A stretch of DNA of 64,000 nt from Candidatus Poribacteria bacterium. GTDB lineage: Bacteria; Poribacteria; WGA-4E; WGA-3G. A program made the position numbers and the translations under genes. The stretch covers positions 16,626-80,625 of the forward strand of contig CBDDPD010000001.1 in NCBI GenBank assembly GCA_965232115.1, in the 5' to 3' direction. Positions 335-45,170 of the stretch are shown here, piece after piece; the stretch's first letter is position 1, and each line of letters begins with the position of its first letter. The notes below the pieces were generated by a model that was given only the letters and a program-made list of their open reading frames with translations, had not been told where the DNA came from and did not search any database.

Positions 335-3300
335 CTATATGAGTGTAGCGGCTTCCAATTGCGTTGTGCGGTTTCTTTGTGCCAAAAGGAAGTTGTCGCT
401 CGGTGGGTGTTGTGTTACTTCCACTTCCACGCGCTGCGGTCTGGGTTCTCCGTCTCCAAAGCCCCCGCCTCCAAAGCCTCCGCCACCCGCAACCGATACC
501 GATTGGGCATTAATATTCACCAGATCCACATGCAAGAGTTCTGGCACTCGCGGCACGTGAAATGCCTCCAATCGGTCATTGAGTCCAGAAAGTCCGGTCG
601 CAAAGTCTTGCAAACTTGAAGTAACTTCAGCGAAACCCTCTGAAATTTCGTTAAACCCTTCTATCGCTGTGGCAAAGTTTGCAATGTTTGCCGCTTCGTC
701 TGCCTGTAGCCTTTCCTGCATCTCTAAAAGTGTGGCTTCCGCAGTAAAATGGGTTTCCCACGTCTCTGTAATGCCTGACAGACGCGTGGCTATGTCGGAG
801 TACATAACAGCGTTTTCGCTCGCTTTCTGCGCTGTCTCGCTTTCGGTTTGTAGGTTTTCACCCGCTTTCTGCAGGTTTTGCTTCTCTGTTTCTATATTCT
901 GGGACGCTTTCTCTGTATTCTCGCGCGCCAATTCGGCGGTGGGTGAGGGTTCCTCTTGGTTCAACAGGGGTTCAAGGGCGGTCTGAATTGCGGTTGCGGT
1001 GGCTTCGGCTTGGGCGTTGATATCCGTTTCTCGCGCAGCGGTGCGACGTGTCAGGTCTGCTTGGGCGCGTTGTTGGCGGATGGCGGCGTTTTGTTGATCG
1101 AAGAATAGTTGTCTGCGGGCATCGTCGGAATCGTATTGGAATTCACGATTGATGTCTCCAAGTCTGCTGCGCGTACCTGTATCCAGATTGATACCCAACT
1201 GATCCAGAAGGGTGTCCACTCCGAAACCGGATTGAAGTCCACTGATCAGTCTGCCGTGTTGCTCGCCGCTTATCCCGACACCGCTTTCACGCAGTAAATC
1301 TTCAATATCTCGCTCGAGTTCAATACGTCTGTCAAGTGCGGATTCGGAGGCGGCGTTGCGGATGTCTTCAAGACGGCGTTGGTGATCCTCCTCTATCTTC
1401 TCTCTACGACGGGCTTCGTCTTCGTGGAGTTCCGTGATTTTCGCTTGACGATCCGCCTCGTTCTCAACCTGCTCGTCACGAAGGTCTTGGATTTCGTCTT
1501 GGAGGTCTTGTTCCAGTTTTAATCTTTCAGTGACGCTCTCGTGCATCTGCGGGATGGCTTCAAGGGCAATGTTTCTTTGGATATCGGCAACCGCCAGCAT
1601 ATTCTCTCGGTCGGTCTCCGACACGTCAAGCCCGTTAATAAAAGCGATCCGCTCGTCATAGAAGGTGTGGATCGCCGTAACAAGAGCCTCGCGTCGACTG
1701 GCAAATTCGGCTTCTGTGGCGTTGTCCAGCAGGAATTGTGCAGTATCGACAAGGCTATCGAGTTGTCCAAGTCCACGCTGTCCAAGTTGCTCCAGGGCTT
1801 CTCCCTCTTGGAAGTCCACTGCACGCATCTGCCGCGCCTTCTTTTCTTCCGTATCCGCGGACTCGCTTATCTTCTGACGTAGCAACGCGTGTTTATTTAG
1901 GAGTGCAGTTCGGAGTCTGGCAATGGCATCTGTAACACCCACGCGCGTTGTTTCGCTGTCGAGTTCCGCAAACAGCTGCGTTAACGCAAAGTCCACACCG
2001 CCCATCTGTTCCCCGATCTGTGTAAGCGTTACGCCGATGGCTCGGTCCTCAATACCTTTCAACGCAACCGCTTTGCCGAGTTCTAAACCCTCAAGGGCTT
2101 GGTTAAATTCCGCATCGCTCTCAAACGCGTCACGAAGGTCTTTCAACGCTTGAATCCGTCTATCAAAACGTTTCCCCGTCAATATCCGTATTGAAGCGAT
2201 AATCCTTTGCATTTCTGCCGGGTCGTCTGTGAGTTGCACTGCTAACTCCAGATTGTCGAGCGCACCCTCAATAAAGTCGACCTGTTTCTGTGCCGCAGCA
2301 GAGATCGCATCAAACTTTTCGGTGTCAAGGTTTGAAAGTGCCAACTGCTGACCGAGTGCCAGCCCTGTCAATGCCCTGTTGAAATCTTCATCTGATAAGG
2401 TGTCGCGGATGTCATGTAGCTCTTGGATCAGCACATCAAACCGCGAAGCCGTGAGAATCTGGATAGCCTCTAATATGTGCTGTGTTTCGACAGCGTCCTC
2501 GGTGAGTTGCAACGCCACTCGCAAGTTCTCAATCGTGGCGTTGATGGCTTCCACGTGACGCATCGCCGCTGCCGAAATCTCGTCAAACTTCTCCGTGTCA
2601 ATGTTAGAGAGGGCAACCTGTTCCCCGAGATTGATACCTCTCACAGCGCGGTTGTACGCTTCAGGATCCAGGCTGTCTTTGATGTTCTCCAGTTCCTCAC
2701 GTAAGACAGTAAATCTCGCAACTGTGAGAATCCTGATAGCGTCAAGAATCTGCTGTCTTTCCGTGGGGTTGTCTGTTAACTCAAGCGAGAGCCGGAGGTT
2801 CTCAATATCCGTATGGATGGCAGTGACTTGTTTCTCTGCCGCAGCAGAGATCGCCTCAAACTTTTCGGTGTCAAGGTTTGAAAGTGCCAACTGCTCGGAT
2901 AGGTTCAAACCTTCTAACGCTTGTTGGTACCGGTCATCGGTGAGTGTGTCCTTGAGTGTCTCTAATTCATCGCGCAGGGCACTGAAGCGTGCCGCGGTCA
3001 GCACCTGTATCGCGTCAAGCATCTGTTGTATTTCTTCGGGAGCGTCCGTCAACGCAAGCGAGAGCCGGAGGTTCTCGATAGAGCCGTTGATAAATGCAAC
3101 CTGTGCCTGTGCTTCGGCAGATATAGCGTTGAGTGCCTGTGTATCTATGCCGGCAAGGGCGCGGTTCTCTGCAGTCGTGAGTCCCAAGATCGCCGCGTCA
3201 AAAGCGGTTTGACTGATTTCCGCTGCTGCCAGTCGTTCATCCAGCCGTTCCCGCAGCCTGCTATATTTATCTGCTATCAGGATTCGGAGTGCCTCTAAAA

Positions 3301-5674
3301 AGCCTGCTATTGCTTGCGGGTCATCAGATTGCTCCACAGAAAACTGCAACGCTTCAATGTTCGCATCTATCAACGCCACATCGTCATCCATTGCTGAGAA
3401 TGTGTTTGCCAAAACAGCGTCAGCATGTCGCTCGGTTTCAGAGGCTTTGGAATTGTGTATTGCCGTCAGGCTGGTGTTATAGACATCCACGCTCATCTCA
3501 CCGGCAACGTATTTCTCATCTAACGCTTTTCGGAGCAGGCGGTATTTCTCAGTGATAAGCGCGGGGACTTGGTCGAGTAACCTCGCAATCTCTGCTGGGT
3601 CGTTTGATTGGTCAATTTGGGTTTCGAGTGCCGTCATCGAGGCGTTGATGCGTTGCGCGTCCTCGTCAATGATCCGTAGTGTGTTTGCTAAAACGGCATC
3701 CGAATGGCGTTCAACCTCCCGTGCTGCGTTGCTCTGAAGTTCGGACAACGCGGCGTTGAAAACGGATTCGGTGATTTCGCCTGCTCCAAAGCGAGCCTCT
3801 AACGCTTTTCGGAGCATCTCATACTTCTGGCGTATGAGGTCAGGCACTTGCGAAAGCAGGCGTGCAATTTCTTCAGGGTCCTTGGATTGGTCAATCCGAG
3901 TTTCTATTGAGAGGATCGCAGCATTGATTATCTCAATACCTGCGTTGATGCTCTCAATTACAGGCGCAATGGATTCCGCGGGCGTCGCAGCAGCGACTTC
4001 GGCAGCATAGGCTTCGGTGCCGTATTGGGCGCGGGCGATGGCTTCGGTGTTCTCTCGACCGCTGGCAAGGTCAATCGCGCCTCGCACTTGGCGATCTGCT
4101 ATGGTACTTCGGAGATTGAAGCGTTGGCTGCTCGGCACTGCTTCAAGTGCCAGTCGGCTCTCATTATTCAACGCGTTAAGGGTTCTGTTGAGTGCCTCAA
4201 TGTTACCGATTGCCCTGCCTGTGGCACGTCTCTGTAGGGTGTAGGAATCAATCTGTTGTTGATATAGGGCAGTGTTGGCTTGGATAACACGCTGAAGCGC
4301 GCCTTGCACATCACCTCCGGATTGCTTTGCGAAATCCAGATTGAATTGGGCTTGGTTTAATGCTTCCCGAAGTCCTTCCAAAACACCGTCGGTATACGAT
4401 TGGATTGTTTCGATCATCCGATCCGGGATCGTGGCAACTTCGTCAAGTGTGGTTTTACCTATGTGTGGGTCAAGTCCCTCAAGCAGTGCGCGGAGGTGTG
4501 GATCGTCGGTTAAGCCCGTTGCCCGCGAGAGGTGCCCACGTCCAAACGCCAGTAAGTCGGTGGGTATTCCAAACTCACCCCGTTCAAACGCGTCTCGGTT
4601 CGCTCTATCGAGGGCAGGCAGGCGTGCATCGGCGTGGCGTTGGTCAAATGTGAAAGCGTCGTGGAGTTGGAAGGGGAGCATCGCGATGGAAAGCGGGTTG
4701 CCGCTGGCGAGTCCGGCAATATCAAATTGACCGATTTTTGTTGTCAAGGATCCAATATCGCCTTCAAAGCGTGCAAGTTCTCCAATAACGCCCTCAATCG
4801 CCGATGCCATTTCACGGAGTTCTTGCGCGGTTTCTCTGGCGGCTTCCCTCTCGGTGCGTTCTGTCTCTTGGTCCTGCCTACCCGAAAGCCGATTGACATA
4901 ATCTCTACCCTGTTGCCCGGCGCGCTGTTGATCTTCCTCAATTGTTAATCCGATCGGGTTCTGTTGGAAATAGCGTTGCTCATTGAGCGCAGAGCGCTCA
5001 AGTGAACCCGCAACATCTGGTAGGCGGTTCCCAAGATAACTGCCTAACGCCTGAACGCCCGATAAAAGGTTCGCAACCGCGTCGGCTGAGCGTTCGGATT
5101 CATCGACAAGCGTTGATGAGAAATTTCGGTAAGCAATATCCGCATCTTCAATCGGTCTTGAAACCGCGGCAAGCACATCAATGTAAGGTTCAGCTTTTGC
5201 GCGGGCTTCGTCGAATGAAAGCCCCTGATCTTGCAGTCTATTCACAAGATCGACAAACGCATCACGAAGCCGCAAAACCTCGTCAACCGTACGGACCATC
5301 TGCCCCTCAAGACTTTCTATAGGTACCGTCAATTCCTGAACCACCGCGCGTTGTGCCGCTGATATCTGTTGAGAGGCACGAATTTGCTGTTGGGCGACAC
5401 GTTCGCGTTCGCGGGCCTCTCGCTGTGTTTGAGCGACCGCCTGTTTCTGAAGGTTCGCCTGCTCAATGCGACTTCGGATTGTGGCTTTTATCGCGTTGGT
5501 CTTCGCCATCTGCGCGCGGATATTTTTCTGCTCTTCTGCCGTAGCCCCGATAAGTCGGTCTTTTTGCTCGGCGAGCGTTTTATTCAGTTGCGCAAGCTTA
5601 CCGCGAAGAGTTTGGATCTCCCCCTGTGCTTGACGCGATTCTGCTCTGAAAATTATCCTTGCTTCTGCTGCCAT
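335..5674 (-). CDS. Tail tape measure protein
   Basis: 1779 aa, Ala/Leu/Glu-rich helical sequence with ~90-aa internal repeats; downstream of tail tube and chaperone genes. Confidence 0.8.
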   Translation of the reverse strand: MAAEARIIFRAESRQAQGEIQTLRGKLAQLNKTLAEQKDRLIGATAEEQKNIRAQMAKTNAIKATIRSRIEQANLQKQAVAQTQREARERERVAQQQIRASQQISAAQRAVVQELTVPIESLEGQMVRTVDEVLRLRDAFVDLVNRLQDQGLSFDEARAKAEPYIDVLAAVSRPIEDADIAYRNFSSTLVDESERSADAVANLLSGVQALGSYLGNRLPDVAGSLERSALNEQRYFQQNPIGLTIEEDQQRAGQQGRDYVNRLSGRQDQETERTEREAARETAQELREMASAIEGVIGELARFEGDIGSLTTKIGQFDIAGLASGNPLSIAMLPFQLHDAFTFDQRHADARLPALDRANRDAFERGEFGIPTDLLAFGRGHLSRATGLTDDPHLRALLEGLDPHIGKTTLDEVATIPDRMIETIQSYTDGVLEGLREALNQAQFNLDFAKQSGGDVQGALQRVIQANTALYQQQIDSYTLQRRATGRAIGNIEALNRTLNALNNESRLALEAVPSSQRFNLRSTIADRQVRGAIDLASGRENTEAIARAQYGTEAYAAEVAAATPAESIAPVIESINAGIEIINAAILSIETRIDQSKDPEEIARLLSQVPDLIRQKYEMLRKALEARFGAGEITESVFNAALSELQSNAAREVERHSDAVLANTLRIIDEDAQRINASMTALETQIDQSNDPAEIARLLDQVPALITEKYRLLRKALDEKYVAGEMSVDVYNTSLTAIHNSKASETERHADAVLANTFSAMDDDVALIDANIEALQFSVEQSDDPQAIAGFLEALRILIADKYSRLRERLDERLAAAEISQTAFDAAILGLTTAENRALAGIDTQALNAISAEAQAQVAFINGSIENLRLSLALTDAPEEIQQMLDAIQVLTAARFSALRDELETLKDTLTDDRYQQALEGLNLSEQLALSNLDTEKFEAISAAAEKQVTAIHTDIENLRLSLELTDNPTERQQILDAIRILTVARFTVLREELENIKDSLDPEAYNRAVRGINLGEQVALSNIDTEKFDEISAAAMRHVEAINATIENLRVALQLTEDAVETQHILEAIQILTASRFDVLIQELHDIRDTLSDEDFNRALTGLALGQQLALSNLDTEKFDAISAAAQKQVDFIEGALDNLELAVQLTDDPAEMQRIIASIRILTGKRFDRRIQALKDLRDAFESDAEFNQALEGLELGKAVALKGIEDRAIGVTLTQIGEQMGGVDFALTQLFAELDSETTRVGVTDAIARLRTALLNKHALLRQKISESADTEEKKARQMRAVDFQEGEALEQLGQRGLGQLDSLVDTAQFLLDNATEAEFASRREALVTAIHTFYDERIAFINGLDVSETDRENMLAVADIQRNIALEAIPQMHESVTERLKLEQDLQDEIQDLRDEQVENEADRQAKITELHEDEARRREKIEEDHQRRLEDIRNAASESALDRRIELERDIEDLLRESGVGISGEQHGRLISGLQSGFGVDTLLDQLGINLDTGTRSRLGDINREFQYDSDDARRQLFFDQQNAAIRQQRAQADLTRRTAARETDINAQAEATATAIQTALEPLLNQEEPSPTAELARENTEKASQNIETEKQNLQKAGENLQTESETAQKASENAVMYSDIATRLSGITETWETHFTAEATLLEMQERLQADEAANIANFATAIEGFNEISEGFAEVTSSLQDFATGLSGLNDRLEAFHVPRVPELLHVDLVNINAQSVSVAGGGGFGGGGFGDGEPRPQRVEVEVTQHPPSDNFLLAQRNRTTQLEAATLI

Positions 5675-6733: not shown

Positions 6734-6762
6734 TTGACAAATAGCCTGAAAACCACTATACT
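6734..6762 (+). promoter_or_regulatory. Sigma70-type promoter
   Basis: TTGACA-17 bp-TATACT. Confidence 0.8.
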
Positions 6763-6769
6763 GTTCTCA

Positions 6770-6863
6770 ACGTAGTTGGTAGAGAATGCGATCCGCCTCG
6801 CTTGAGGCGGTCTCTACCGAAACTGAGTCGCATCAGGAACTACGTCGTTGAAGCTACGTGAAC
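6770..6863 (+). ncRNA. Structured leader RNA, copy A
   Basis: P1 ACGTAGTT/AACTACGT; P2 GGTAGAGA/TCTCTACC; P3 CCGCCTC/GAGGCGG; P4 CTGA/TCAG; kissing TGCGAT/GTCGCA; second P1' GCTACGT. Confidence 0.7.
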
Positions 6864-7134
6864 ACGCTACAAATTATACATTCCAGTTGGCTGGCACAGT
6901 AACAAACAGAAGTACATCACGAGACCTACAAGCGCATCTATAACGAGCGGATGTCAGATTTAACGGCACTCTGTAGCAAGTGCCACGAGGCAGCCCATAC
7001 CCGGACCCCCAAAAGCCGAAAGAGAAGCACTACTGGAGAAAGGTACCGAACCCGAAAACCTAAACAACGCAGATTTTATCGAAAACGCAAGCCGAAAACA
7101 AAACGCAATATGTAGTTTTGGAAAGGAGAAATGC

Positions 7135-7822: not shown

Positions 7823-8365
7823 ATGGAGAATATAGATTGGTCCGCTTGGATAGTGGCAGCTTCTGCATTCATAACAGCAGTTGCTACTGGTGTTCTCGCT
7901 ATCATTACACGACGATACGTCCGACTCACGCAGGAGATGTTAGAAAACTCCTACAGACCAGAAATTGACCTTCATCTATTAAACACAGGGAGAGTATACC
8001 CCAATCAAGTCGGTGTGGGAGTGGGGAAAGCCGCTTTACTTATCCTCAGTGCAAAAAATATAGGTCCAGGAGTTGCCCGTAAGATTGAGTTTAAAGGGCA
8101 TGATTCTTTCAATCCTGATCCTGATAACGTAGGCAGTTTTCCACTTCAGCACGTTTATTTCCTTGAGGAAAAAAGGGACCGCCTTCTTTCTGGGGATGAA
8201 CTAAAATCACAGGATAATCTTCTTGGGTATAAGTTTGATATGGCTTCAAGCGATCTAAATAAATTTCAGGTTACGATTACAGGGACTTGGGAAGATACAA
8301 AAGGAAAGAAATATTGCGATGATTTTCCTCTCAATTTTGCGGATCCTAATACATGGCGTAAATAA
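7823..8365 (+). CDS. Membrane-anchored hypothetical protein
   Basis: N-terminal transmembrane helix; 180 aa. Confidence 0.6.
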   Translation: MENIDWSAWIVAASAFITAVATGVLAIITRRYVRLTQEMLENSYRPEIDLHLLNTGRVYPNQVGVGVGKAALLILSAKNIGPGVARKIEFKGHDSFNPDPDNVGSFPLQHVYFLEEKRDRLLSGDELKSQDNLLGYKFDMASSDLNKFQVTITGTWEDTKGKKYCDDFPLNFADPNTWRK

Positions 8366-8618
8366 ATTGCTTTGAGAAGTTCCTCATCATAAATTTACAA
8401 ATTTGAGCCCACGCCCCGCCCACACTGCATCACCACACACAACCCACACTCTGCCTGTAAGACGCTTTGAACTCCTTGTCCTGTGGTCTCAGGGGCAAAG
8501 GATAGGGCGGGGATGTGTAAACATATTGACGAAGGGGTTGATATTATGTTTCTTAGACGCACCAGAGAAGAACGGCGAATCGCGACAGATTACACGGTAC
8601 ACAAAAAATAAAAGAATT

Positions 8619-8647
8619 TTGATGTAGCGTCTAAAATGTGGTAAAAT
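8619..8647 (+). promoter_or_regulatory. Sigma70-type promoter
   Basis: TTGATG-17 bp-TAAAAT with extended -10 TG. Confidence 0.6.
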
Positions 8648-8654
8648 GAATATA

Positions 8655-8746
8655 ACTTGCTGGACAGGGATTCCACCTCGGCGCGCTCCAAGTGCCGAGT
8701 CCTGTCCGTACCGCTGGAATGGTAGATAGGCAAGTGGCAAGCGAAC
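8655..8746 (+). ncRNA. Structured leader RNA, copy B
   Basis: P1 ACTTGC/GCAAGT; P2 GGACAGG/CCTGTCC; P3 CTCGGCGC/GTGCCGAG; P4 TACC/GGTA; kissing ATTCCA/TGGAAT; second P1' GGCAAGC. Confidence 0.7.
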
Positions 8747-8831
8747 CTCGAAAACATAAATTTTAATATTTAGTGTGATCTCGTTAATTGTGTGGGGGTC
8801 TCGTGTTTACCCTTTCACGCATTAATTCATA

Positions 8832-9002
8832 CTAAGCTTTGGACAATTTTTAGAGGGATACACATTTCGCCCCACTGGGGCTTGTCTGTGGTGTATCCGA
8901 GTTTCTTTTCGCGTGAGTTGGGTTGGTTTAAGAAACTCACAGAAAAACATATAAACTCTTGAAAGCTCAACTCACAGGCAACACCGATTGTCCAAACTTT
9001 AT
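8832..9002. mobile_element. MITE (~171 bp)
   Basis: Imperfect TIRs CTAAGCTTTGGACAAT / ATTGTCCAAACTTTAT flanked by direct repeat TAATTCATA (8823-8831, 9003-9011). Confidence 0.7.
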
Positions 9003-9026
9003 TAATTCATAGAAGGACTTATTTTT

Positions 9027-10289
9027 ATGTATAGAAAAGTAAATTACGCGGTGCTGAGTGTCTTGTTACTCATTTCCGCTGTATTTATTTATGATTTTGG
9101 GTACACACATCCTGGTAAAACGGACGCGAAAGGCGGACATTACAATCGGAAGACAGGCGAGTATCACTATCATGGTGGGGCAAAACCACGCCCTCCGGTT
9201 AATATTGCTCCGACAGCACCCAAAAATTTAGGGGATGCTGAGGTTGTCCCTGGTCCGACAGTAGCCCAAGGTGTTACTGGTAAGGTTTCGCGACGGTCTG
9301 AGTTGAAGTTAGCAGCTTGGAACATCCGCATTATGAGCAACAAGAGCCGAACAGATGCCGAGTTACACAAGATAGCGCAAACCCTTATTGACTATGATTT
9401 CATCGCAATCAGCGAGTTACGCGATGAAAGAGTTTTGAAGCGCGTCCAGAGAATCCTCTCGGAGTCGGGGGCGGAGTATGGTTATCTGATTAGCGATCCT
9501 GTCGGTCGGGAAGGTAGCCCGCACAAGGAGCGTTACGCGTTTCTCTACTACAAGGGACTGGTGAGTGTTGTCAAGGGTGGGGAACTCTATCCGGATGCAG
9601 CAGACGGCACAGACGACTTTGTCCGCGATCCGTATTGGGCGACCTTCCGCGCGGGCAGGTTTGATTTTTCAGTAATTGCTGTCCATGTCATTTGGGGGGA
9701 TAGGGTCGGACCCAGGAAAGCGGAAGTGAGGGCATTGGCAGATGTTTATCGGTATGTCCAAAAAGCGAATGGGGCTGAAGATGATGTTCTGCTCGTAGGG
9801 GATTTCAATCGGAACCCGAATGATACGGAAGCCTACAGTCGAATCATGTCAATCCCTTCGATGACGCGTCTATTTCAGTTACCACAGAAATCACATATAA
9901 GAGATTCAAGTCTTTACGACAACATTTTTTTTCAGAAGAATCATGTCACTGAGTACCTCGGTAGATCAGGGATCGACAAATTTGATGAAATGGATTTCGG
10001 GAACGATGACAAAGCCGCGAACCTCGCTGTCAGTGATCATCGCCCCGTCTGGGCAGTTTTTAGCATAACCCAAGATGACGATGGGAGCAATGCAGGCGGT
10101 TCTGAACCGGAACCCTTCCAACCGCCAGAAGATACTCCCATTGAGGATGTGTCGGTTTATGTCACTCGAACAGGTAAGAAGTATCATCTTGGCAGTTGTA
10201 GTTCATTGAGACGAAGTAAGATTGAAATTACGCTGGCGGAGGCGAAACAGAAGTATGGGGCGTGTTCAAGGTGTAATCCGCCACGGTAG
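9027..10289 (+). CDS. Secreted DNase I-like endonuclease/exonuclease/phosphatase with YHYH N-domain and C-terminal Cys/His metal-binding domain
   Basis: Signal peptide; HPG..GGH...EYHYH; AWNI, ERYAFLY, GDFN, SDHRPV motifs; VYVTRTGKKYH...C...CSRC. Confidence 0.85.
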   Translation: MYRKVNYAVLSVLLLISAVFIYDFGYTHPGKTDAKGGHYNRKTGEYHYHGGAKPRPPVNIAPTAPKNLGDAEVVPGPTVAQGVTGKVSRRSELKLAAWNIRIMSNKSRTDAELHKIAQTLIDYDFIAISELRDERVLKRVQRILSESGAEYGYLISDPVGREGSPHKERYAFLYYKGLVSVVKGGELYPDAADGTDDFVRDPYWATFRAGRFDFSVIAVHVIWGDRVGPRKAEVRALADVYRYVQKANGAEDDVLLVGDFNRNPNDTEAYSRIMSIPSMTRLFQLPQKSHIRDSSLYDNIFFQKNHVTEYLGRSGIDKFDEMDFGNDDKAANLAVSDHRPVWAVFSITQDDDGSNAGGSEPEPFQPPEDTPIEDVSVYVTRTGKKYHLGSCSSLRRSKIEITLAEAKQKYGACSRCNPPR

Positions 10290-11157: not shown

Positions 11158-12024
11158 ATGGGGTCTATCTACAAAATCACCAACACTCTCAACGGTAAAT
11201 CTTATATCGGTCAAACCCGCCATGATGCCGTGAAAACGAGAATACGCGATCATCTCAGGGGCAAGGGCAGTCAACCTGTCAAAGACGCTATTGAGAAGTA
11301 TGGACAAGATGCTTTCACCTTTGAAATTCTGCACGATGGCATCATTCCTGAATTTCTTGATGATCTTGAGAAAGAAGTGATTGCGAAGTTCAATACTGTG
11401 TCTCCACACGGCTATAATCTGACGGAAGGTGGTGAAGGTGGATCTCACTGTGAAATAACGCGTCAAAAGTTATCTGAAATCAATAAAGGTAAAAAACATT
11501 CTGAAGAAACTAAGCGCAAACTCTCCGAAGCACACCAGGGACAAATTCCATGGAACAAAGGCAAAACGCATTCAGAGGAAGCGAAACGGAAGATGTCCGA
11601 AAACAATCCAATGAAACGTCCTGAAGTTCGTCGGAAACTCTCTGAAGCAAATAAAGGTAAAAAGCGATCTCCTCTTTCAGAAGAACAGCGTCGGAAACTC
11701 TCTGAAGCAAATAAAGGTAAAGTTTTATCCGCAGAGACACGCCGGAAAATATCTAAAGCAAATAAAGGCAGAGTTTTATCCGCAGAGACACGCCGGAAAA
11801 TATCTAAAGCGCAGAAAAATATGTCTCATTCAGAAGAAGCCAAGCGTAAAATCTCTGAAGCGAAAAGAAGTCCTTACTATAAGGATGCACACTCTTTTTT
11901 TTCTTCCTTACCATCCGATATGTGTTTGAAGAAAAAAAGAAATCTGCTATATGAGAATTTTTCGGATGTCGTGGACACCCGTACAATCCGCCGTTGGATT
12001 CGCAAATGGAACTCTGAAGGATAA
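11158..12024 (+). CDS. Free-standing GIY-YIG homing endonuclease with NUMOD3 repeats
   Basis: SIYKITN...YIGQT motif, GYNLTEGG, repeated [12 protein letters not shown]. Confidence 0.9.
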
Positions 12025-16567: not shown

Positions 16568-17158
16568 CTATGCGGAAAGGAGTTTGTATCCGTCCGGGCA
16601 TCGGATCGCCGTCAGCTCCGCATTCTCCAAATACCATTGAAGGTTACTGCGTTTGGCAGAGTTGCCCTGATTCCCGCCAAAGAGTTTCTGGCAGTTGTCC
16701 ACAACGACACCGACATGGCGGATCGGGAAGTCTGCATCTTCTTTGGGTTCAAAGACGCAGATTGCACCGTCCGTGAGGGTGTCTATTTCATATCCGAATG
16801 TCTTGAAACTTGTTGCCATCAGGTTCAATTCTGTGACATCGAAGCCAAGCGCCTCAAAGATTTTCAGCCAGAACCCTGCGCACCAAGACTTCCCGCCCTC
16901 TGCATCATTGGGATTGAAACCCAAGAAAGCCTGTAGCGCTTTCTGGTCTCGTGCCTCGTGTTTGCCGTTCCATTTCAGACCGCTCACAACCCAGTCGGCT
17001 TCCATACCCTTGACTTCTATAATGCCAGGCGTTGTTTCTATAACTTCATTCTGAGGTGGTGCTTCTCTGGGAGGATCCATCATTTCATTGAGACCTTCTA
17101 CCACGTGTAGCAACCCCGATTTTATTTTCACGAGTGCCTCTACATTTTCGGTTTTCAT
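16568..17158 (-). CDS. Putative endolysin, NlpC/P60-CHAP-like (TIGR02594-type) peptidase
   Basis: SWCAGF, HVGVV and GGNQGNS motifs. Confidence 0.7.
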   Translation of the reverse strand: MKTENVEALVKIKSGLLHVVEGLNEMMDPPREAPPQNEVIETTPGIIEVKGMEADWVVSGLKWNGKHEARDQKALQAFLGFNPNDAEGGKSWCAGFWLKIFEALGFDVTELNLMATSFKTFGYEIDTLTDGAICVFEPKEDADFPIRHVGVVVDNCQKLFGGNQGNSAKRSNLQWYLENAELTAIRCPDGYKLLSA

Positions 17159-17472
17159 CAGCGTGTCTCCTTTCCGTTTTGTGCTTCTGCTTGTGCTTTC
17201 TTCAAAAAATGGCTTTGCACCACGCTACTGGCGTACCCAGCGAAGTATGCAACAATCGCAAGTAAAAACGCTTGGGTTACATACGTGCCAGGCTCCTTGT
17301 TAAGAACGCCTATCGAATAGCCCTCTAATAAAAATACAAATATTAACAGACCCCCGAAGATTCCAAATATCCAATTGATGATCCGGCTTGCATCGTGATC
17401 CTTGGACCATTTGGCGATCTTGCGTTCTGTTTTCGCCTGCTGTATTTGCTCTTTTTGTTCTTTGTTGTTCAT
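17158..17472 (-). CDS. Two-TM holin-like protein
   Basis: Two hydrophobic segments; overlaps the endolysin start. Confidence 0.5.
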   Translation of the reverse strand: MNNKEQKEQIQQAKTERKIAKWSKDHDASRIINWIFGIFGGLLIFVFLLEGYSIGVLNKEPGTYVTQAFLLAIVAYFAGYASSVVQSHFLKKAQAEAQNGKETR

Positions 17473-17478
17473 GACCCG

Positions 17479-17859
17479 TCAATCCTCTCCAAGCAGCCGT
17501 CTGCGTATTTTCACACGTTCCGGCTCGGATATATCTGAATTTAGGAGCAACACCGCATACAGAATTTCACGCAGTGCAGCCCGCACCTGTTGGTCGTGCC
17601 GCGTACAGATCTCGATGATTTTTTCATGCGCTTGCCGCTCGCGTTCAGCATGCTCTTTGCGATACGCAGCCATTTCAGATTTATGCCGCTCTTGTGTTTT
17701 TTCCAAGGTTTCTTGACTCTGCTCGTAAAGCGAAGTGATGGCTTCTTGGTGTGCAGCTTCGCGTCTGGGCAGATACTTGACGACCATCCAGATCAGCAAC
17801 CCCGAAACGATACTTCCAAATCCAAGCTGCGCCCATTGCGTGATGAGTGTTAAATCCAT
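17479..17859 (-). CDS. Single-TM coiled-coil protein, BhlA/UviB-like holin candidate
   Basis: AQLGFGSIVSGLLIWMVVKY followed by RE and a coiled coil; lysis-cassette position. Confidence 0.45.
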   Translation of the reverse strand: MDLTLITQWAQLGFGSIVSGLLIWMVVKYLPRREAAHQEAITSLYEQSQETLEKTQERHKSEMAAYRKEHAERERQAHEKIIEICTRHDQQVRAALREILYAVLLLNSDISEPERVKIRRRLLGED

Positions 17860-18375
17860 TTATCTCAAACTCCTTTCCGCGGCAGCAATTGCCTCGCTCT
17901 GCCATTTCTCACCGAGTTGCGCCATCCGTTCCTCAAACCGTTCGCCCGCAACGATCAACGCATACACGGCGCGCGACGACAGATTCCCTTCCCCATGCCC
18001 CGATTCATGGATCGCTGGGTAATTCGCGCCAAAGTGAGACTCGAAATACGTGCCATCGACACCCAACACCATCTCGGTCGGTCCAAACTCAGCGAGGTTG
18101 CCCGGGTGGCTCAAGGACGTTGCCGCCTCAAAGTAGACATCACCGCGGCGAAGAATCCCTTTCCCGGGATGCGACACCGCTTTTCGCGCCGCATATAACG
18201 GATCTAAATGTGCCCACGCACCGCGACCGCCGGTTTCAAAAATATCGTCGATGTCGCCGACGGTGAACGGCATCACAAAGTCTGTCCAGAAAGGCGTGTA
18301 ATTCTGTAGACGTGCTCCGATCTTTTCAACGAGTGTCTCTGCTCGCAAAAGCGTCTCAAAATTTATGTCAACCAT
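17860..18375 (-). CDS. Virion morphogenesis protein (Mu gpG-like)
   Basis: FETGGRGAWAHL.P.YAARKA...PGKGILR and YPAIHE patterns. Confidence 0.65.
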   Translation of the reverse strand: MVDINFETLLRAETLVEKIGARLQNYTPFWTDFVMPFTVGDIDDIFETGGRGAWAHLDPLYAARKAVSHPGKGILRRGDVYFEAATSLSHPGNLAEFGPTEMVLGVDGTYFESHFGANYPAIHESGHGEGNLSSRAVYALIVAGERFEERMAQLGEKWQSEAIAAAERSLR

Positions 18376-18396
18376 ATTCCGCGTCCTCTTTTTTCC

Positions 18397-18425
18397 TTGA
18401 CATAAATAGTCAAGAATGCTATAAT
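18397..18425 (+). promoter_or_regulatory. Consensus sigma70 promoter antisense to the virion operon
   Basis: TTGACA-17 bp-TATAAT. Confidence 0.75.
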
Positions 18426-18521
18426 ATTGATGTATTGCTGGTAGGGATTACGACCCTCGTCGCAAGGAATTCCTCTCCAAAGACATTCCCGATACATCCA
18501 ACGCTGAACAGAAATACCTGT

Positions 18522-18614
18522 TAGGACTTACGCAAAATCACAGAATTACGCCTATGCCTACGCGGTAGGTGCGGTTTGAAACCGCACTCTACCAGGGGAA
18601 GTACGTAAGTCCTA
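18522..18614. mobile_element. MITE (93 bp) with internal REP-like hairpin
   Basis: TIR TAGGACTTACG/CGTAAGTCCTA; 6-bp target duplication ACCTGT; internal GTAGGTGCGGTTTGAAACCGCAC. Confidence 0.75.
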
Positions 18615-18654
18615 ACCTGTTTTCGTTGATGAAAACTTGTGTTCTCAGCAACTC

Positions 18655-18996
18655 CTAAGCTACCCCTCGATGTAAAAGTTGCAACTGCATGACATTGCTA
18701 CCTTTCATCGTCAGGACACCAACGATCCGCAATTCTGAGTCATCGGAACGCTTGACAAAATCGCCTTTCTTAATCGTTGGGTTCGGCACCTCCAGCAGTG
18801 CCGTCCAGTGCGACGCTTCTATCGGGACACCCGAATTCAACTCAACAGAATCCCGACGCGCATTCACAGAATCCGGCGGCGGCACAATCCTGCAGACAAC
18901 ATCTTCCGCAATCGTTTCCTCGCCATCACGCTCGAAAGACGACCGACGGATCACTGTCACCTCTTCCTTGCTTTCCGGCGGAATCCTGAATCTCAT
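18655..18996 (-). CDS. Head closure / head-tail joining protein
   Basis: 113 aa beta-rich protein; IKKGDFV...LRIVGV pattern; position. Confidence 0.55.
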   Translation of the reverse strand: MRFRIPPESKEEVTVIRRSSFERDGEETIAEDVVCRIVPPPDSVNARRDSVELNSGVPIEASHWTALLEVPNPTIKKGDFVKRSDDSELRIVGVLTMKGSNVMQLQLLHRGVA

Positions 18997-19036
18997 AACT
19001 CCCTATCCCTGTTCGGCACTGCTGAGGATTTACTTC

Positions 19037-19540
19037 TTAATCGTTATAGGTCGGTACACGCCGATATGGGTACCTCGGCACCCCAACCTCGCGTCGTTCC
19101 GTCCCAATAGCACCAAACGGGAGTTTCCGACGCGTGCCTTTCTTTGACGCACTATCGGACTTCGCGACGCTCTCCACAATGTCAGCGACCTTCTCTTCAA
19201 CTTTCGTCAAATGGAATGCTCGCTTCTCCTTCCAGTCGATTGCCTGCACCTCCGTGACAACCTGAAGTTGCGTCTGACGGATCATTTGTGGTGCAGTCAA
19301 ACACAACTCCGAGGCACATTGATGCATTATCGCGAGAAGCGCATCTTCTGCTGCATCACCCGTTAACGCGTCCACATCAATGCCCAGCGCATTCAGTCGT
19401 TTCCGTACCTGACGCTCGGCATCCGGGGCAAAGGGTTGCTGCGAGAGATAGTCATCGGAGATATGCACTGCAGTAACATCCGGCGCAATCAATCCACGAA
19501 CGGCATCGTAATGTTGGGAAGTCAATATCGTCGCAGGCAT
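19037..19540 (-). CDS. Head-tail adaptor protein
   Basis: Helical protein directly downstream of the capsid gene. Confidence 0.5.
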   Translation of the reverse strand: MPATILTSQHYDAVRGLIAPDVTAVHISDDYLSQQPFAPDAERQVRKRLNALGIDVDALTGDAAEDALLAIMHQCASELCLTAPQMIRQTQLQVVTEVQAIDWKEKRAFHLTKVEEKVADIVESVAKSDSASKKGTRRKLPFGAIGTERREVGVPRYPYRRVPTYND

Positions 19541-19661
19541 CTGAAACTCCGTTTTTAGGGGTTATCCGTTATAGGTACGTTCCGCTGCGCGGGAAGGGTT
19601 GTCGGTACGTTTCGCTTCGCTCCACTTTCGGTTATAAGTTATAAGTTAAAAGAGGCACGTG

Positions 19662-19758
19662 TTATAGTAGATTCCGTAATTACTTTTACACAGAACTCGG
19701 TGCGGTTGCAAACCGCACCTACCGACGGGTGTGCAGATATTTTCGGGTTTTACTATAA
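19662..19758 (+). mobile_element. 97-bp MITE family A, copy 1
   Basis: Ends TTATAGTA...TACTATAA; internal hairpin GGTGCGGTTGCAAACCGCACC; four other copies in the window. Confidence 0.8.
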
Positions 19759-19848
19759 ACAAAAACCTCTTAACCCAAAACTAAGAACCAAAAGCGAACG
19801 TAGTGAGCGAACCAACAACCGCAGTGAACGCAGTGAGCGAACCGACAC

Positions 19849-21210
19849 CTACTCCAAAACCTTCAGGGTCTTGTTACCCGTTTCGCCTATCACAACGATG
19901 TAGATCGCTTTCTTCGGCTGATAGGAAATCCAACCCCAGATCTCAGAGCAGACGATGTATTCGACCTGCTTGAGCATATCCCGCGTCGTCTCAATAATGT
20001 CCGTGTTCATCTGGGAAACGTACTCGACCGCTTTCCGCTTGTCATACACGACAAAAGCATTGTGCTTCGTCGCTGAGTTCCCAGACCCCGCCTGAATCCG
20101 GTTCTCACAGTAGTCATGCCAGCCGACCCGAATCCCCTGCGCCAACTGGTTCATCACAGAGAAATTCCCGCCATACCCGCTCATGACGGCGTTGGGACGC
20201 TCGTTCATGTTCACTAACATCACGTTCGTCCCGGCGACTTTCGCCAGCTGGAGATCCGTAACATCCTCGTCCGTGCCGATTGCAGAGGTCAACATATAAG
20301 AGCGTTTGAACTTTTTCTGGAGCGCGAGCCACGCTTTCGGGGTCAGGGTATCCGTCGCCGATGCATCCAATTCCTGAAGCCGGAGGATCGTGCCACCGAG
20401 GTTGTCGCCACCGGCACCATGAAACACCGTCTCAAGCCCTTCATCGACCTTCGCCATAATCCGCTGGACACCGATCTCCTCAACGTGTTCCATCGCTTTG
20501 TCAATGAACTCGACTTCCCGGAGGTGTTCATATGTGAACGGGATGGCCAGCATCCGCTTCTTCGGCTGGATGGGGCGTTCAGAGGTGTCGAAGGTCGCCA
20601 TCGGCGGATCCGCCCCAGGGGTCCGCTGTTCCTCACGGAAGGCATCTTCCTCATACTCCAGGATCGTGGCGCGGTAGTCCTTCTTACTCGTCTCCGCCAT
20701 ACGCGTCGTGAGTTCCTCAAGGGCGATGTCGACTTCTACGTCTTCGTCCCAATGCGCCATCGCATCGTAGTAAGGGGTAAGTGTGGAGCCGGGTGGGGTG
20801 TCGTGGACATCCTGGAACGTGCCAGCGCGTTCCCAACGCGCACGTCTTTCGGCTTTCCGTGCCGCCGCTTCGATCTGCGGGCGATACACCGTACTCCGAT
20901 ACGCGTTCAGACACATCTCTTTGAGTGCCAACTCTTTCCCCGGATCGCCAATCACGTCTTCAGTGCGAGTCGGCCAAATGCCCGCCGCAGGGTTACACTC
21001 CGTGGTCATTTCTAACGCATCAAGCACCACCTCAAATCCGGAACGCCGGTCGTCATCGGCACCCAACTCGCCGTCTTTTTCTGGATCGTATTGGGAATCG
21101 AGATACGCGGAAAACGGCATACCCGCATCCGCCGCTTGCTCGACAAGCCCGGCACGCTGCGATGCATTCCCATACCTTTCTACGACCTCTCGTGTCGTCA
21201 TTAAAGCCAT
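19849..21210 (-). CDS. Major capsid protein
   Basis: 453 aa; follows protease/scaffold and decoration genes; HK97-like C-terminal pattern. Confidence 0.8.
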   Translation of the reverse strand: MALMTTREVVERYGNASQRAGLVEQAADAGMPFSAYLDSQYDPEKDGELGADDDRRSGFEVVLDALEMTTECNPAAGIWPTRTEDVIGDPGKELALKEMCLNAYRSTVYRPQIEAAARKAERRARWERAGTFQDVHDTPPGSTLTPYYDAMAHWDEDVEVDIALEELTTRMAETSKKDYRATILEYEEDAFREEQRTPGADPPMATFDTSERPIQPKKRMLAIPFTYEHLREVEFIDKAMEHVEEIGVQRIMAKVDEGLETVFHGAGGDNLGGTILRLQELDASATDTLTPKAWLALQKKFKRSYMLTSAIGTDEDVTDLQLAKVAGTNVMLVNMNERPNAVMSGYGGNFSVMNQLAQGIRVGWHDYCENRIQAGSGNSATKHNAFVVYDKRKAVEYVSQMNTDIIETTRDMLKQVEYIVCSEIWGWISYQPKKAIYIVVIGETGNKTLKVLE

Positions 21211-21313
21211 TTTGTTTTTCTCCTTTTTTAAGGGTTCTTGGTTATTCGTTGTTGGTTATAAGGGGTTATCGGTTTTTCGTTCGTTCCGCGCAACCCGAAC
21301 CTACAACCAAGAA

Positions 21314-21847
21314 CTACCCTGGAAACGCCATAAGTGCATGCGTCGTGTCAAACTCCAGCACCGAGCCTTTGCCTTTCACAATATCCACCAAGTCACCAAC
21401 CGTTGCCGAAACACTGTTTATCTGGGTCCGCGCGGCGTTGTGGACTGTTAGCTTCTCCGCTTCCGTGTCGATATCCGCGGCTTCCAGGTTCGCAAGGTCC
21501 GTCGGTAAACCCGCAGGCGCACTCACGGCTTTCACATACCCTTTGGCATTGCTCGGTCCAAGCCCAGCCACAAGTTTATCGCCGCGCTTGACAGTCTTGT
21601 TACTCGCAATCGGGACCCGCAGCCCGCCGAACAGGTACGCCGCGGTGATCTGTGTGTCGTCTACAGCGATGATCACGCCATCGAATTCCTCGCCATCGGC
21701 GGGTAACTCGGCTTGCCCATCGTCGTTGATACGATAGACCCTCCCGACTGCCGTGCTACGGTTCTTCTTCGTTATGTCGTATTTGATGGTCGACTTATCA
21801 TGCGGGATGCTCGTCGTTACCACAAATGGGTGTTCTTTCAAAGCCAT
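21314..21847 (-). CDS. Capsid decoration/cement protein
   Basis: 177 aa between protease and capsid genes; VKRGDKLVAG...GYVKA. Confidence 0.55.
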   Translation of the reverse strand: MALKEHPFVVTTSIPHDKSTIKYDITKKNRSTAVGRVYRINDDGQAELPADGEEFDGVIIAVDDTQITAAYLFGGLRVPIASNKTVKRGDKLVAGLGPSNAKGYVKAVSAPAGLPTDLANLEAADIDTEAEKLTVHNAARTQINSVSATVGDLVDIVKGKGSVLEFDTTHALMAFPG

Positions 21848-21946
21848 TTCTCATTCCTCCATTTTAAGGTTATCAGTTGAGGGTTGTCGGTACGTTCCGC
21901 TCCGCTCCACTTTCGGTTATAAGTTATAAGTTAAAAGAGGCACGTG

Positions 21947-22043
21947 TTATAGTAGATTCCGTAATTACTTTTACACAGAACTCGGTGCGGTTGCAAACCG
22001 CACCTACCGACGGGTGCGCAGATATTTTCGGGTTTTACTATAA
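21947..22043 (+). mobile_element. 97-bp MITE family A, copy 2
   Basis: One mismatch to copy 1. Confidence 0.8.
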
Positions 22044-22075
22044 ACAAAAACCTCTTAACCAAAAACCAAGAACCA

Positions 22076-23407
22076 CTACCGCCATCTCCGTTTCCGTTGA
22101 CGCGGGGTCCGCTTCTTTCGCTCTGGGGGCGGTTCATGCTCATCACCCGTCGATCTGCCTGCCGGTAACGCCGCATCCCCTTTTTTCTTGTTCTGCGTGA
22201 TATGGTCTTCGAGTTTTTCCAGCGGCATGTCAGCGTAGTACTCGCGATGGTATGCCTCATCAAAGTCGTCGCCGTATGCCCGGTTGCCTTGCTTGATCGC
22301 CTCTTCAACGCGCGCCTCGCGATACGCCTGGCCGTCTTTGGCAGCTGCCTGTAGGTCGGCAATCTCGTCTTTCTGGGTTTCGACTTGACTGCGGAGACCC
22401 GTGACCTCTTCCGTCACGTTTTCTAAAACGGTATCCGGGTCATCTGTCGAGCGGACATCCTTGAGATCCAGTGCATCCCGCAACGTCGTAACGAACTGTT
22501 GACGCGCCGTATCCACATCCTGCGACGCTGTCGTGAGGTCAGCAATCTCGTCTCTCTGCGCTGAAATGGTGGTGCGAAGCCCCGCTACCTCGGTTTCGAG
22601 TGCCTTCACAACCGCATCGGGGTCATCCGTCGATTTCAGCGTCGGGACTTTGAGGGCATCCCGTAATTTATCCACCCACTCGCGATCTGTCATGCGTAAT
22701 TCCTCCATAAAACCTCGTAAAACGTTTTTCATAGGTGCTTCAGGTTCCCCTGAAACCGCTTCCAAAAAACGTTGTTTTTCTATCGAGGTGTATCGGTTAG
22801 ACCCAAACTCAACGAGTGAAATTTCTTTGAGCCGGGCATCATAGACGGTGTAGGTCGCCGTCTCCATCTTGCCGTCTTTATTTTTGTACTGTTTCCCCAT
22901 CTTGTGGGGACACTTCCCTTCATCGTCAGGTTCCCAATCCCAATAGGAATACCGTCGAATCGGATTCCCACATATATTACAAATTTCACGGGCATCGTAG
23001 AACCCAACAGACGCTTGGTTCACCAGCCCGTTTTCAATCGCACGAATTAACTGCTCGCTTGAACTGAAATGAAAACTGGATTCCTTGTTGTAATCCATGT
23101 CTTTGAGGATGAAAAAGTCGATGAACAACTCATTCGTGTCGGCGAGTTTTGCACCCACAGAACGCCCGTACCCGAAAGACCGAGAATAGCCGCCATGATG
23201 ATCCTTCAATGCCACCCCTAATTCCGATTTCGCGTCTGCCTCGAAATTCTTGAGGGTGGTCTTGGGGTCCATCATGGAGTTGTGTTTGTCCAATTCCGAA
23301 TTGCTCGCCAGGATCCGAATATAATATTTCTCGTCATCCTCTTCGGGCAGATCCGAATGCATCTCGCGCGTTCCGATCGTGACTGGCAACAGTCTTAGGT
23401 TTTCCAC
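22076..23407 (-). CDS. Prohead protease-scaffold fusion
   Basis: GTG start after AGGAG; DH, ASVGF, CxxC, EISLV protease-like motifs; C-terminal duplicated coiled coil. Confidence 0.75.
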   Translation of the reverse strand: MENLRLLPVTIGTREMHSDLPEEDDEKYYIRILASNSELDKHNSMMDPKTTLKNFEADAKSELGVALKDHHGGYSRSFGYGRSVGAKLADTNELFIDFFILKDMDYNKESSFHFSSSEQLIRAIENGLVNQASVGFYDAREICNICGNPIRRYSYWDWEPDDEGKCPHKMGKQYKNKDGKMETATYTVYDARLKEISLVEFGSNRYTSIEKQRFLEAVSGEPEAPMKNVLRGFMEELRMTDREWVDKLRDALKVPTLKSTDDPDAVVKALETEVAGLRTTISAQRDEIADLTTASQDVDTARQQFVTTLRDALDLKDVRSTDDPDTVLENVTEEVTGLRSQVETQKDEIADLQAAAKDGQAYREARVEEAIKQGNRAYGDDFDEAYHREYYADMPLEKLEDHITQNKKKGDAALPAGRSTGDEHEPPPERKKRTPRQRKRRWR

Positions 23408-23420
23408 TGTTATTCTCCTT

Positions 23421-24863: not shown

Positions 24864-24933
24864 GAGAAACTGTGATTAGTTCGTGTCCTTTTTCAGTCGT
24901 CGTTTGCAGTTGCTGTGATTTCATCTTTACCTC

Positions 24934-25043
24934 TTATAGTAAAACCCGAAAATATCTGCACACCCGTCGGTAGGTGCGGTGTTTTTGCTTGGGTGTTTCT
25001 CGCACTGAATTCTGTGTAAAAGTAATTACGGAATCTACTATAA
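24934..25043 (-). mobile_element. MITE family A, copy 3 (110-bp internal variant)
   Basis: Same termini; centre of the hairpin replaced by GTTTTTGCTTGGGTGTTTCT. Confidence 0.75.
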
Positions 25044-25124
25044 AGGGGAGTGGGTTCTGGGTCAGAGGCGTTTATCGACCAAAATCTCTTAACCGACACC
25101 CTACACCTTATAACTGACAACCCC

Positions 25125-26564: not shown

Positions 26565-26567
26565 ACA

Positions 26568-44143: not shown

Positions 44144-44280
44144 GTTGAAAATCCTCTCCTTTGTTTTTAAGGCAACTGAAGCAATATCAGCCCTTCTTCT
44201 TGCTCTGAATTTCGCCTTGTGGACGTGCTTAGGTATCGCGCCCGGTTAAAGTTACGCATTTCCCCTTAGAGCTTTCTATC

Positions 44281-44377: not shown

Positions 44378-44501
44378 TAAAGAGGCTCAGTCCTACCAAC
44401 CATCTTCACCGTTATCCCTTCTCACCAAAGGGTTTTGATAGGATACCGGCTGCTGCACGGTCAGTTGTTTGGCTTCATTATCTCGTACCCTTTGAGTGTG
44501 T

Positions 44502-45167: not shown

Positions 45168-45170
45168 ACT

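Follow-up and report, generated by a model that had tools for sequence, protein, structure and literature searches.

A 5'-terminal leader RNA family of Poribacteria with a tandemly duplicated closing strand, and its possible toggling between alternative helices

The window analyzed here is the whole stretch of 64,000 nucleotides taken from a contig (CBDDPD010000001.1) of a Candidatus Poribacteria bacterium. It holds five copies (A-E) of a structured RNA of about 110 nt, referred to below as the leader, which begins at the +1 position of a sigma70-type promoter. Positions 8729-8745 read GGCAAGT GGCAAGC GAA and form the 3' end of copy B, a structured element starting at 8654. The first-pass annotation of this DNA had stated that every copy carries the 3' strand of its closing helix P1 twice in tandem, followed by GAA, and the tandem strings were confirmed as quoted in all five copies. 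Four matching segments are distinguished below: X (nt 1-8 of the transcript), its tandem complements X'1 and X'2, and X2, a partial copy of X. The features of the five copies are listed here.

8619-8647, forward strand: promoter of copy B (TTGATG, 17-nt spacer, TAAAAT); predicted start at about 8654, 7 nt after the promoter
8654-8661, forward strand: X of copy B, AACTTGCT, the 5' strand of P1 and predicted 5' end of the transcript
8662-8724, forward strand: core of copy B, with P2 (8662-8668 with 8701-8707), P3 (8677-8682 with 8694-8699), P4 (8709-8712 with 8721-8724) and a pseudoknot (PK; 5' strand 8670-8675, 3' strand in the P4 loop 8715-8720)
8729-8735, forward strand: X'1 of copy B, GGCAAGT, the first 3' strand, forming helix P1a in the predicted minimum-energy fold
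8736-8742, forward strand: X'2 of copy B, GGCAAGC, the alternative partner of X (helix P1b) and, across the family, the 5' arm of P5, a weak hairpin in B
8743-8760, forward strand: tail of copy B, with GAA (8743-8745), CCTCG and AAAACAT, that is, a GANA-type loop, a degenerate X2 and an AACAT box
6734-6866, forward strand: copy A with its promoter (TTGACA 6734-6739, TATACT 6757-6762)
Segments of copy A, forward strand: X 6770-6777; X'1 AACTACGT 6838-6845; spacer cgttgaa; X'2 GCTACGT 6853-6859
3' end of copy A, forward strand: GAA 6860-6862 within a GAAC loop 6860-6863; X2 (ACG) 6864-6866
47175-47308, reverse strand: copy C with its promoter (TTGTAA 47308-47303, TATACT 47284-47279)
Segments of copy C, reverse strand: X 47273-47266; X'1 GGACTGG 47195-47189; X'2 GACTGG 47188-47183
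3' end of copy C, reverse strand: GAA 47182-47180 within a GAAAT loop 47182-47178; X2 (CCA) 47177-47175
49446-49590, reverse strand: copy D with its promoter (TTGTAA 49590-49585; the -10 element ends at 49561)
Segments of copy D, reverse strand: X 49553-49546; X'1 GCTGAGTT 49478-49471; X'2 GCCAAGG 49470-49464
3' end of copy D, reverse strand: GAAG loop 49463-49460; X2 (CCTTG) 49459-49455; AACATT box 49451-49446
61460-61599, forward strand: copy E with its promoter (TTGTAT 61460-61465, TG-n-TATACT 61480-61488)
Segments of copy E, forward strand: X 61494-61501; X'1 GCCAATT 61569-61575; X'2 GCCAAGG 61576-61582
3' end of copy E, forward strand: GAAA loop 61583-61586; X2 (CCTTG) 61587-61591; AACATT box 61594-61599

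All five copies have a sigma70-type promoter upstream and the same order of parts, namely X, P2, an internal-loop strand of 6-8 nt, the P3 hairpin, the P2 return strand, the P4 hairpin, a short junction, X'1, X'2, and GA-N. The 5' strand that matches both repeats is each copy's own (ACGTAGTT in A, AACTTGC in B, AACCAGTT in C, and AACTTGGC in D and E). The P4 loop is complementary to the internal-loop strand in each copy, and the fold is a three-way junction (P1, the P2-P3 arm, and P4) that is locked by a pseudoknot between the P4 loop and the P2/P3 internal loop. Folding z-scores of the five leader RNAs against dinucleotide shuffles range from -2.2 to -4.4. Contigs of three metatranscriptome runs (5-7% of sampled words each), compared over window positions 46900-49700, cover the D leader (49446-49554) and extend into its promoter, although contigs cannot show RNA ends. 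A promoter-like TTGCCA-17-CATTAT inside copy D (49472-49444, reverse strand), made by X'2 and the AACAT box, was rejected as a feature of the leader, as it is absent from E and, by eye, from other types.

A covariance model (R1) was seeded with copies B, D and E only, with X paired to the second copy, X'2. Scoring the window without filters, R1 recovers copy A (23.0 bits, E 6.9e-4) and copy C (24.5 bits, E 2.5e-4), and the next match in the window has an E-value of only 2. In the genome of origin, a limit of E<=0.1 returned the three seeds and one chromosomal copy, and raising the limit to E 10 gave no credible extra match. Among 101 related genomes, 42 contain R1 matches at E<=0.01, with about 140 further copies. 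A phylum-wide sample gave matches in 65 of 151 genomes, including 62 of the 99 genomes in the window's own family, one of 10 and one of 26 in two other Poribacteria families, and none of 15 across six more; single genomes carry up to 27 matches. Since three seeds suffice to retrieve the other two copies of the window, and R1 also matches the genomes of many relatives, the leader family is real. The leader set used below comprises all matches from the 101-genome search plus A and C, 145 in total, of which 137 are distinct; these sequences are related and mostly from one bacterial family, so that there are fewer independent events than cell counts suggest.

The family appears to be new, as it is absent from Rfam 15. 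The whole window gave no Rfam 15 matches at the gathering score, positions 8300-9100 at E<=10 gave only a chance GRIK4 match away from the leader, and in the loci with D, E, B and the chromosomal copy the leader was likewise unmatched at E<=10. A structured candidate from the same phylum, the Poribacteria-1 RNA motif, was reportedly described by Weinberg and colleagues in 2017. A literature search on Poribacteria RNA motifs, riboswitches, noncoding RNA and leaders returned nothing concerning this RNA; the supplements of PMC5737381 lay outside that search, and the main text of that article contains neither the word 'Poribacteria' nor 'sponge'. ARAGORN, which seeks true tRNAs and not looser mimics, detected no tRNA genes in the whole window.

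A promoter-like site precedes 109 of the 137 distinct leaders, and in 97 of these 109 the -10 element ends 6-7 nt upstream of the first leader base. This spacing places X at the very 5' end of the transcript. The covariation alignment (103 rows, 97 distinct) was evaluated for the structure composed of P1b, P2, P3, PK and P4. Altogether, 95.1% of its 2982 cells are paired, a value reached by none of 500 shuffles, and sliding the partners by 1-3 columns reduced it to 37-45%. The paired fractions are 98.5% for P2, 97.9% for P3, 94.0% for PK and 88.7% for P4. PK and P4 are paired even though they lie outside model R1, with two-sided changes in five of seven PK pairs and all four P4 pairs, and the 5' strand of the pseudoknot varies among copies (ATTCCA, GTATCAC, CTACCACG or ATGCGA). 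The architecture is shown by the data, as are the covariation of every helix and the way in which the four segments track one another in sequence. Among the unpaired columns, none reaches 90% conservation across the 97 distinct rows, the highest value being 85 of 97 for a U between P3 and P2; this test is weak in a sample drawn mostly from one bacterial family. A pairing of the P5 loop sequence ACC with the 3' strand of P4 was also considered and set aside, because by eye it does not follow the P4 changes in copies A and C or in leaders L032 and L085.

Because the MAFFT alignments are out of structural register for X'1 and P5, P1a and P5 were tested both alignment-free and in two fixed registers. 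In the alignment-free test, the last 40 nt of each leader were searched for two non-overlapping runs complementary to its first 9 nt, with G-U allowed. Two such runs with a score of at least 5 were found in 105 of the 137 distinct leaders, compared with 4.9% for shuffled 5' strands. There are at least ten different X cores, and both copies follow each time (cores include CTTGGC, CTTGC, GCTCGT, GTTCGT, GCACTT, GACACTT, CACACT, CATGC, GCCTGT, CCAGTT and ACGTAG). Many of the 32 misses have a weaker copy or a second copy beyond the 40-nt tail, about eight are truncated, and two are single-copy variants (L082:1301-1389 and L144:1301-1387, both on the reverse strand) with one X' followed by the loop and X2, an arrangement in which P1 and P5 would exclude each other. 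In the R1 alignment, which was not fitted to the first copy, X:X'1 is paired in 71.4% and 66.0% of cells in the two fixed registers. The X:X'2 helix is paired in 91.9% of cells in an alignment that was itself fitted to P1b, and all six of its pairs change on both sides. The earlier suggestion that the second copy tracks its own 5' strand and is under selection is thus borne out by covariation among homologues in the expanded alignment.

The first-pass annotation had also offered a triplex as one explanation of the duplication. A triple helix of X with X'1 and X'2 has only the presence of three matching strands in its favor. In a first pass, no more than 0-2 nt lay between the two runs in 68 of the 105 leaders, and the runs have the same polarity, so that X'2 is unable to fold back along X'1 and cannot lie along P1. 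Moreover, X'2 has a partner of its own in X2. Nor would a strand with the sequence of the Watson-Crick partner satisfy the pyrimidine or the purine rule for triplexes. We therefore reject the triplex by geometric reasoning, and it retains next to no probability.

Mismatches and wobble pairs bear on a second alternative, in which the repeat would be a feature of the DNA, belonging to a mobile promoter cassette either as the duplication of its target site or as a site for a recombinase or transposase. Across 837 cells, X'1 forms 198 G-U pairs with X and is mismatched at 60, and the respective numbers for X'2 are 95 and 104. The G-U pairs, which make up 24% of the copy-1 cells, point to strand-specific pairing at the RNA level, and the helices change by compensation. 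Near-identical cassettes of the D/E type do stand before different genes in many genomes, and E has the gene of a tyrosine recombinase directly upstream. However, the repeats are adjacent to each other instead of flanking an insert, and none of 21 loci with relatives of this recombinase holds a leader within 1.5 kb. A DNA-level origin is accordingly very improbable. Relatives of the recombinase occur in several copies per Poribacteria metagenome-assembled genome, with six loci in one such genome.

The sequence behind the repeats proved to be part of a further hairpin. The reported 'GAA' is more exactly GA-N, with G in 79, A in 83, and A as third base in only 39 of 97 distinct rows, and it is the start of a GANA-type loop that caps P5, the hairpin of X'2 with X2. 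The loop after X'2 has the form N-GA-N-AC or GAAA, most often TGAGAC (13), CGATAC (12), TGATAC (7), GAAA (6) and CGACAC (6). The CAAGG-GAAR-CCTTG hairpin that had been pointed out in D and E is present there, and turned out to be general to the family: P5 reaches a hairpin score of at least 4 in 84 of the 105 leaders, compared with 34% after shuffling of the 22 nt behind X'2. X2 repeats part of X, with at least four consecutive shared bases in 77 of the 105 leaders (control, 22%), and an AACAT box lies behind 47 of the 137 leaders, compared with 4% in shuffles.

We counted the pairing of the four segments over all register positions (778 cells), and found 648 paired cells for X:X'2, 640 for X:X'1, 545 for X2:X'2 and 494 for X2:X'1. 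In the 397 cells where X differs from X2, X'2 is complementary to X alone in 179, to X2 alone in 76, and to both in 105. By these sequence counts, X'2 complements X beyond the needs of P5. Since P1 and P5 stay alike through many changes of X, at least one cross-pairing (X:X'2 or X'1:X2) would also be selected, and the data lean towards X:X'2.

In the minimum-energy folds of the 105 leaders, P1a together with P5 is predicted in 53, P1b in 23, P1a alone in 13, and another arrangement in 16. All energies are nearest-neighbour predictions with the pseudoknot left out. The predicted median cost of blocking is 4.0 kcal/mol for the first copy and 3.8 for the second, so the two states are close in predicted energy. 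The minimum-energy fold of copy A pairs X'2, and its centroid pairs X'1.

These results are compatible with two exclusive registers of P1, one of the readings put forward in the first-pass annotation and the one that we prefer. In the putative ground state, X would pair with X'1 in P1a, and X'2 with X2 in the short P5 hairpin with its GANA-type loop. In the alternative state, X would pair with X'2 in P1b, P5 would be melted, and X'1 would be pushed into the junction, which would free X2 and the A-rich tract behind it. A strand-exchange toggle between P1a plus P5 and P1b would then set the shape of the transcript start. X, X'1, X'2 and X2 are interchangeable by sequence, and mutually exclusive helices are possible as in an attenuator; we infer their actual formation, the population of both states, and what these states would control. 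Toggling among four interchangeable strands is a tentative proposal, to which we give slightly less than an even chance.

Several points weigh against it. Both states are drawn from sequence and predicted folds; P1a plus P5 is the predicted ground state, and P1b may never be populated. The count that most favors P1b comes from the alignment fitted to that helix, and the kinship of sequences noted above applies to all cell counts. The likeness of X'2 to X'1 could be maintained by replication slippage in a tandem repeat. In copy B, P5 has only about 3 bp and X'2 adds nothing to the predicted energy (blocking X'1 costs 1.4 kcal/mol, and blocking X'2 costs 0). The lack of an unpaired column conserved at 90% or more argues against a small-molecule pocket, and no trigger is indicated. 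There is also no general output element: a simple terminator scan was empty at D and E, a T-run follows only 19 of 40 leaders of the CTTGG type and few others, and the distance from the leader to the first open reading frame (ORF) varies from 2 to about 680 nt.

The commonest predicted fold can also be taken at face value. P1a and P5 would then be permanent and stacked through the continuous X'1-X'2 strand, the 5' end would be buried, and the leader would act as a compact 5' stabilizer with no switch, the likeness of P5 to P1 being a historical by-product of a local duplication kept uniform by slippage. The prevalence of P1a plus P5 (53 of 105 folds), the start of X at the predicted +1, and the variety of unrelated coding and non-coding transcripts downstream all fit such a generic stabilizer, and the GANA-type loop of P5 could dock on the core. 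However, nothing would constrain the sequence of a static P5, whereas both X'2 and X2 change along with X across at least ten different cores. Furthermore, X'2 is complementary to X at positions left unused by P5 (179 versus 76 cells), and slippage could renew X'2 from X'1 but not X2. We consider the static fold unlikely, although it keeps a substantial share of the probability.

The cross-pairing of X2 with X'1 allows a permuted attenuator, in which X'1 and X2 would form the alternative helix, X'2 would lie in the loop, and the junction strand would lengthen the helix by pairing with the AACAT box. In the D/E type, a U-tract would come next, making this long hairpin a terminator and P1a plus P5 the anti-terminator. 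X2:X'1 is paired in 494 of the 778 cells, the TAGCACTT-type X2 (CACTC) fits X'1 (GAGTG) better than X'2 (AAGTG), and one fold (L009) predicts such a long hairpin. The T-runs of the CTTGG type lie within 60 nt after X'2, mostly at +15 to +23. However, they are rare in other types (3 of 31 CTTGC and none of 11 GCACT leaders), and the empty terminator scan at D and E speaks against the idea as well. Of the cells that distinguish X'1 from X'2, 114 show X2 fitting X'2 alone and 63 show it fitting X'1 alone. By eye, the junction strand pairs with the box only weakly, and this in some subtypes and not in others, and the 3' part folded alone gave mostly P5 and not the long hairpin; this helix was not adopted, and the permuted attenuator is improbable.

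Strand-swapped RNA oligomers, the remaining proposal of the first-pass annotation, belong to a class of trans pairings in which X'2 or X2 of one leader would bind X or X'1 of another to give dimers or oligomers, or X'1 or X'2 would bind short abortive transcripts of X sequence. The logic of four interchangeable strands is what favors them, with X being the first 6-8 nt from a strong promoter. As X cores differ between loci of one genome, any oligomers would be homo-oligomers. However, intramolecular partners are always closer, and we regard pairing in trans as decidedly improbable.

The genes behind the leaders differ from copy to copy. The window contig (84 kb) is probably a phage-plasmid, and five of the six leaders detected in the genome lie on it, heading accessory cassettes. 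The downstream genes and the phage and plasmid genes of the window are as follows.

Downstream of A: small ORFs without matches
Downstream of B: a protein of 420 aa that weakly matches Exo_endo_phos
Downstream of C: GmrSD, a ShosA/DprA-like gene, two type III methyltransferases and a type III restriction enzyme
Downstream of D: a ThsB-like TIR gene and an HNH/DUF4268 gene
Downstream of E: a C5 methyltransferase and a type II restriction enzyme
Phage genes within 16568-27203, reverse strand: terminase large subunit 25125-26564; portal 23421-24863; head protease 22076-23458
Further phage genes, reverse strand: major head protein 19849-21210; baseplate/lysozyme-like protein 16568-17158
Plasmid-type genes within 57868-61451, forward strand: ParA-like partition gene 59225-59845; repressor-like regulator 57868-58782
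60675-61451, forward strand: small tyrosine recombinase (258 aa), just upstream of E

Window positions 44000-50000 had no near match in the plasmid collection. Defence operons follow copies C, D and E. Leaders in other loci also precede defence-like genes (UvrD-type helicases, HEPN proteins, NotI, Mrr-STAND and reverse transcriptases), as well as genes for ribosomal protein L21, NifU, OmpA, a sigma-54 activator, TnpB and an integrase. Unlike the targets of metabolite riboswitches, these genes form no coherent set. Together with the variable distance to the first ORF and the lack of a conserved unpaired column, this argues against a metabolite riboswitch and for a generic role; a gene-specific response to a metabolite is unlikely, and the leader is probably a generic transcript module. 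Its output is most likely generic as well, acting on transcript stability or processing, or on read-through in the subgroup with a U-tract. A terminator output is conceivable only for the D/E type. If the preferred strand-exchange toggle operates in such a module, the leader would be a natural strand-exchange device serving as a generic transcript header, in which X hops between partners and the decoy X2 holds the unused one, an extension that we consider rather improbable. Such a two-state latch could be set co-transcriptionally or by molecules of X sequence, such as abortive transcripts, and could decide the fate of anything downstream, including the defence cassettes of the phage-plasmid.

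We compared the leader with several known classes of RNA and DNA elements. Attenuators and riboswitch platforms share with it a position in cis directly behind the promoter, exclusive short pairings, and repeats that are forced by shared partners. In the trp leader attenuator, the segments pair as 1:2, 2:3 and 3:4. The order in the Poribacteria leader is permuted (1:2 plus 3:4 versus 1:3), and the leader has no leader peptide, general terminator or link to a ribosome-binding site. Unlike riboswitch platforms, it also lacks conserved unpaired nucleotides and precedes unrelated genes. The 5' stabilizers, such as the ompA 5' hairpin and the Bacillus subtilis aprE leader, and the exonuclease-resistant RNAs (xrRNA) of flaviviruses resemble the leader in that the first nucleotides of the transcript are base-paired, and more generally as a compact fold, which in the leader is a three-way junction that contains a pseudoknot and heads many unrelated transcripts. 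The predicted pairing of nt 1-8 might confer resistance to 5'-end-dependent decay. Known bacterial 5' stabilizers are simple hairpins, and to our knowledge none of ompA, aprE and xrRNA has a duplicated closing strand together with a decoy of the 5' end.

The putL and putR RNAs of phage HK022 are also structured RNAs that lie right after promoters of a temperate mobile element and head its operons. They are two stem-loops, in contrast to the junction with a pseudoknot found here, and blanket antitermination makes little sense for the leader because it also precedes a T-box leader and single short genes. The purine riboswitch and the hammerhead ribozyme have a similar three-helix junction with a covarying long-range loop contact, but the leader has no Rfam match and no hammerhead core, and its junction strands are short and unconserved. 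Promoter-bearing miniature inverted-repeat transposable elements such as the Correia elements are likewise dispersed, promoter-carrying repeats upstream of unrelated genes. In the leader, however, the copies diverge by compensatory changes and the tandem repeat is internal and paired in RNA; no terminal inverted repeats flanking the unit were noticed, though no formal search for those was made at the unit ends. Finally, type III toxin-antitoxin RNAs (ToxI-like) consist of a tandem array of whole repeat units before the toxin gene, whereas the leader duplicates only a strand of 6-8 nt and occurs once per promoter.

The leader thus enlarges the repertoire of an uncultured phylum of sponge-symbiont bacteria by a structured RNA that is well supported and missing from Rfam 15, with at least 140 copies and covariation in all helices. 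It heads unrelated transcripts, among them three defence operons on a phage-plasmid-like contig. The design is unusual in that one helix sequence is written four times (as X, X'1, X'2 and X2), and we know of no described bacterial leader with this property. If the strands do exchange, the leader would offer a compact natural model for regulation by RNA branch migration, and could supply a ready-made part for RNA engineering. If it is merely a static, cap-like 5' fold, it would still be a candidate for a new kind of bacterial mRNA stabilizer.

Several further observations were made in the surroundings of the leaders. In one locus, a leader copy is followed after 285 nt, on the same strand, by a T-box leader (L031:937-1216, reverse strand; RF00230, 103.8 bits). 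Behind the leader of many Poribacteria loci stands a conserved RNA-like element about 300 nt long, which is present in multiple copies and ends in ..TATCAC; it was seen downstream of L114, L121, L068, L071, L078, L123, L138, L139, L090, L135 and L124. This element has covarying hairpins (for example, CCC-nnnnC-TTTA-Gnnnn-GTGGG) and gave no Rfam match at E<=0.1 in 16 loci. An alignment of nine copies from two genomes shows the repeat unit beginning about 100 nt before the promoter, with a copy of the hairpin that forms its end. In two loci (L110:1301-1391 and L151:1301-1390, both on the reverse strand), the leader breaks off in the return strand of P2 (..CCTAT) and continues with GTGCG, the usual 5' end of group II introns. 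The next ORF in L110 has RVT_N and RVT_1 domains, and both cases look like a group II intron inserted in the leader. Elsewhere in the window, a 288-aa ORF resembling GIY-YIG/NUMOD3 homing endonucleases is found at 11158-12024 on the forward strand, and a 1779-aa ORF at 335-5674 on the reverse strand has no Pfam, PADLOC or PHROGs match.

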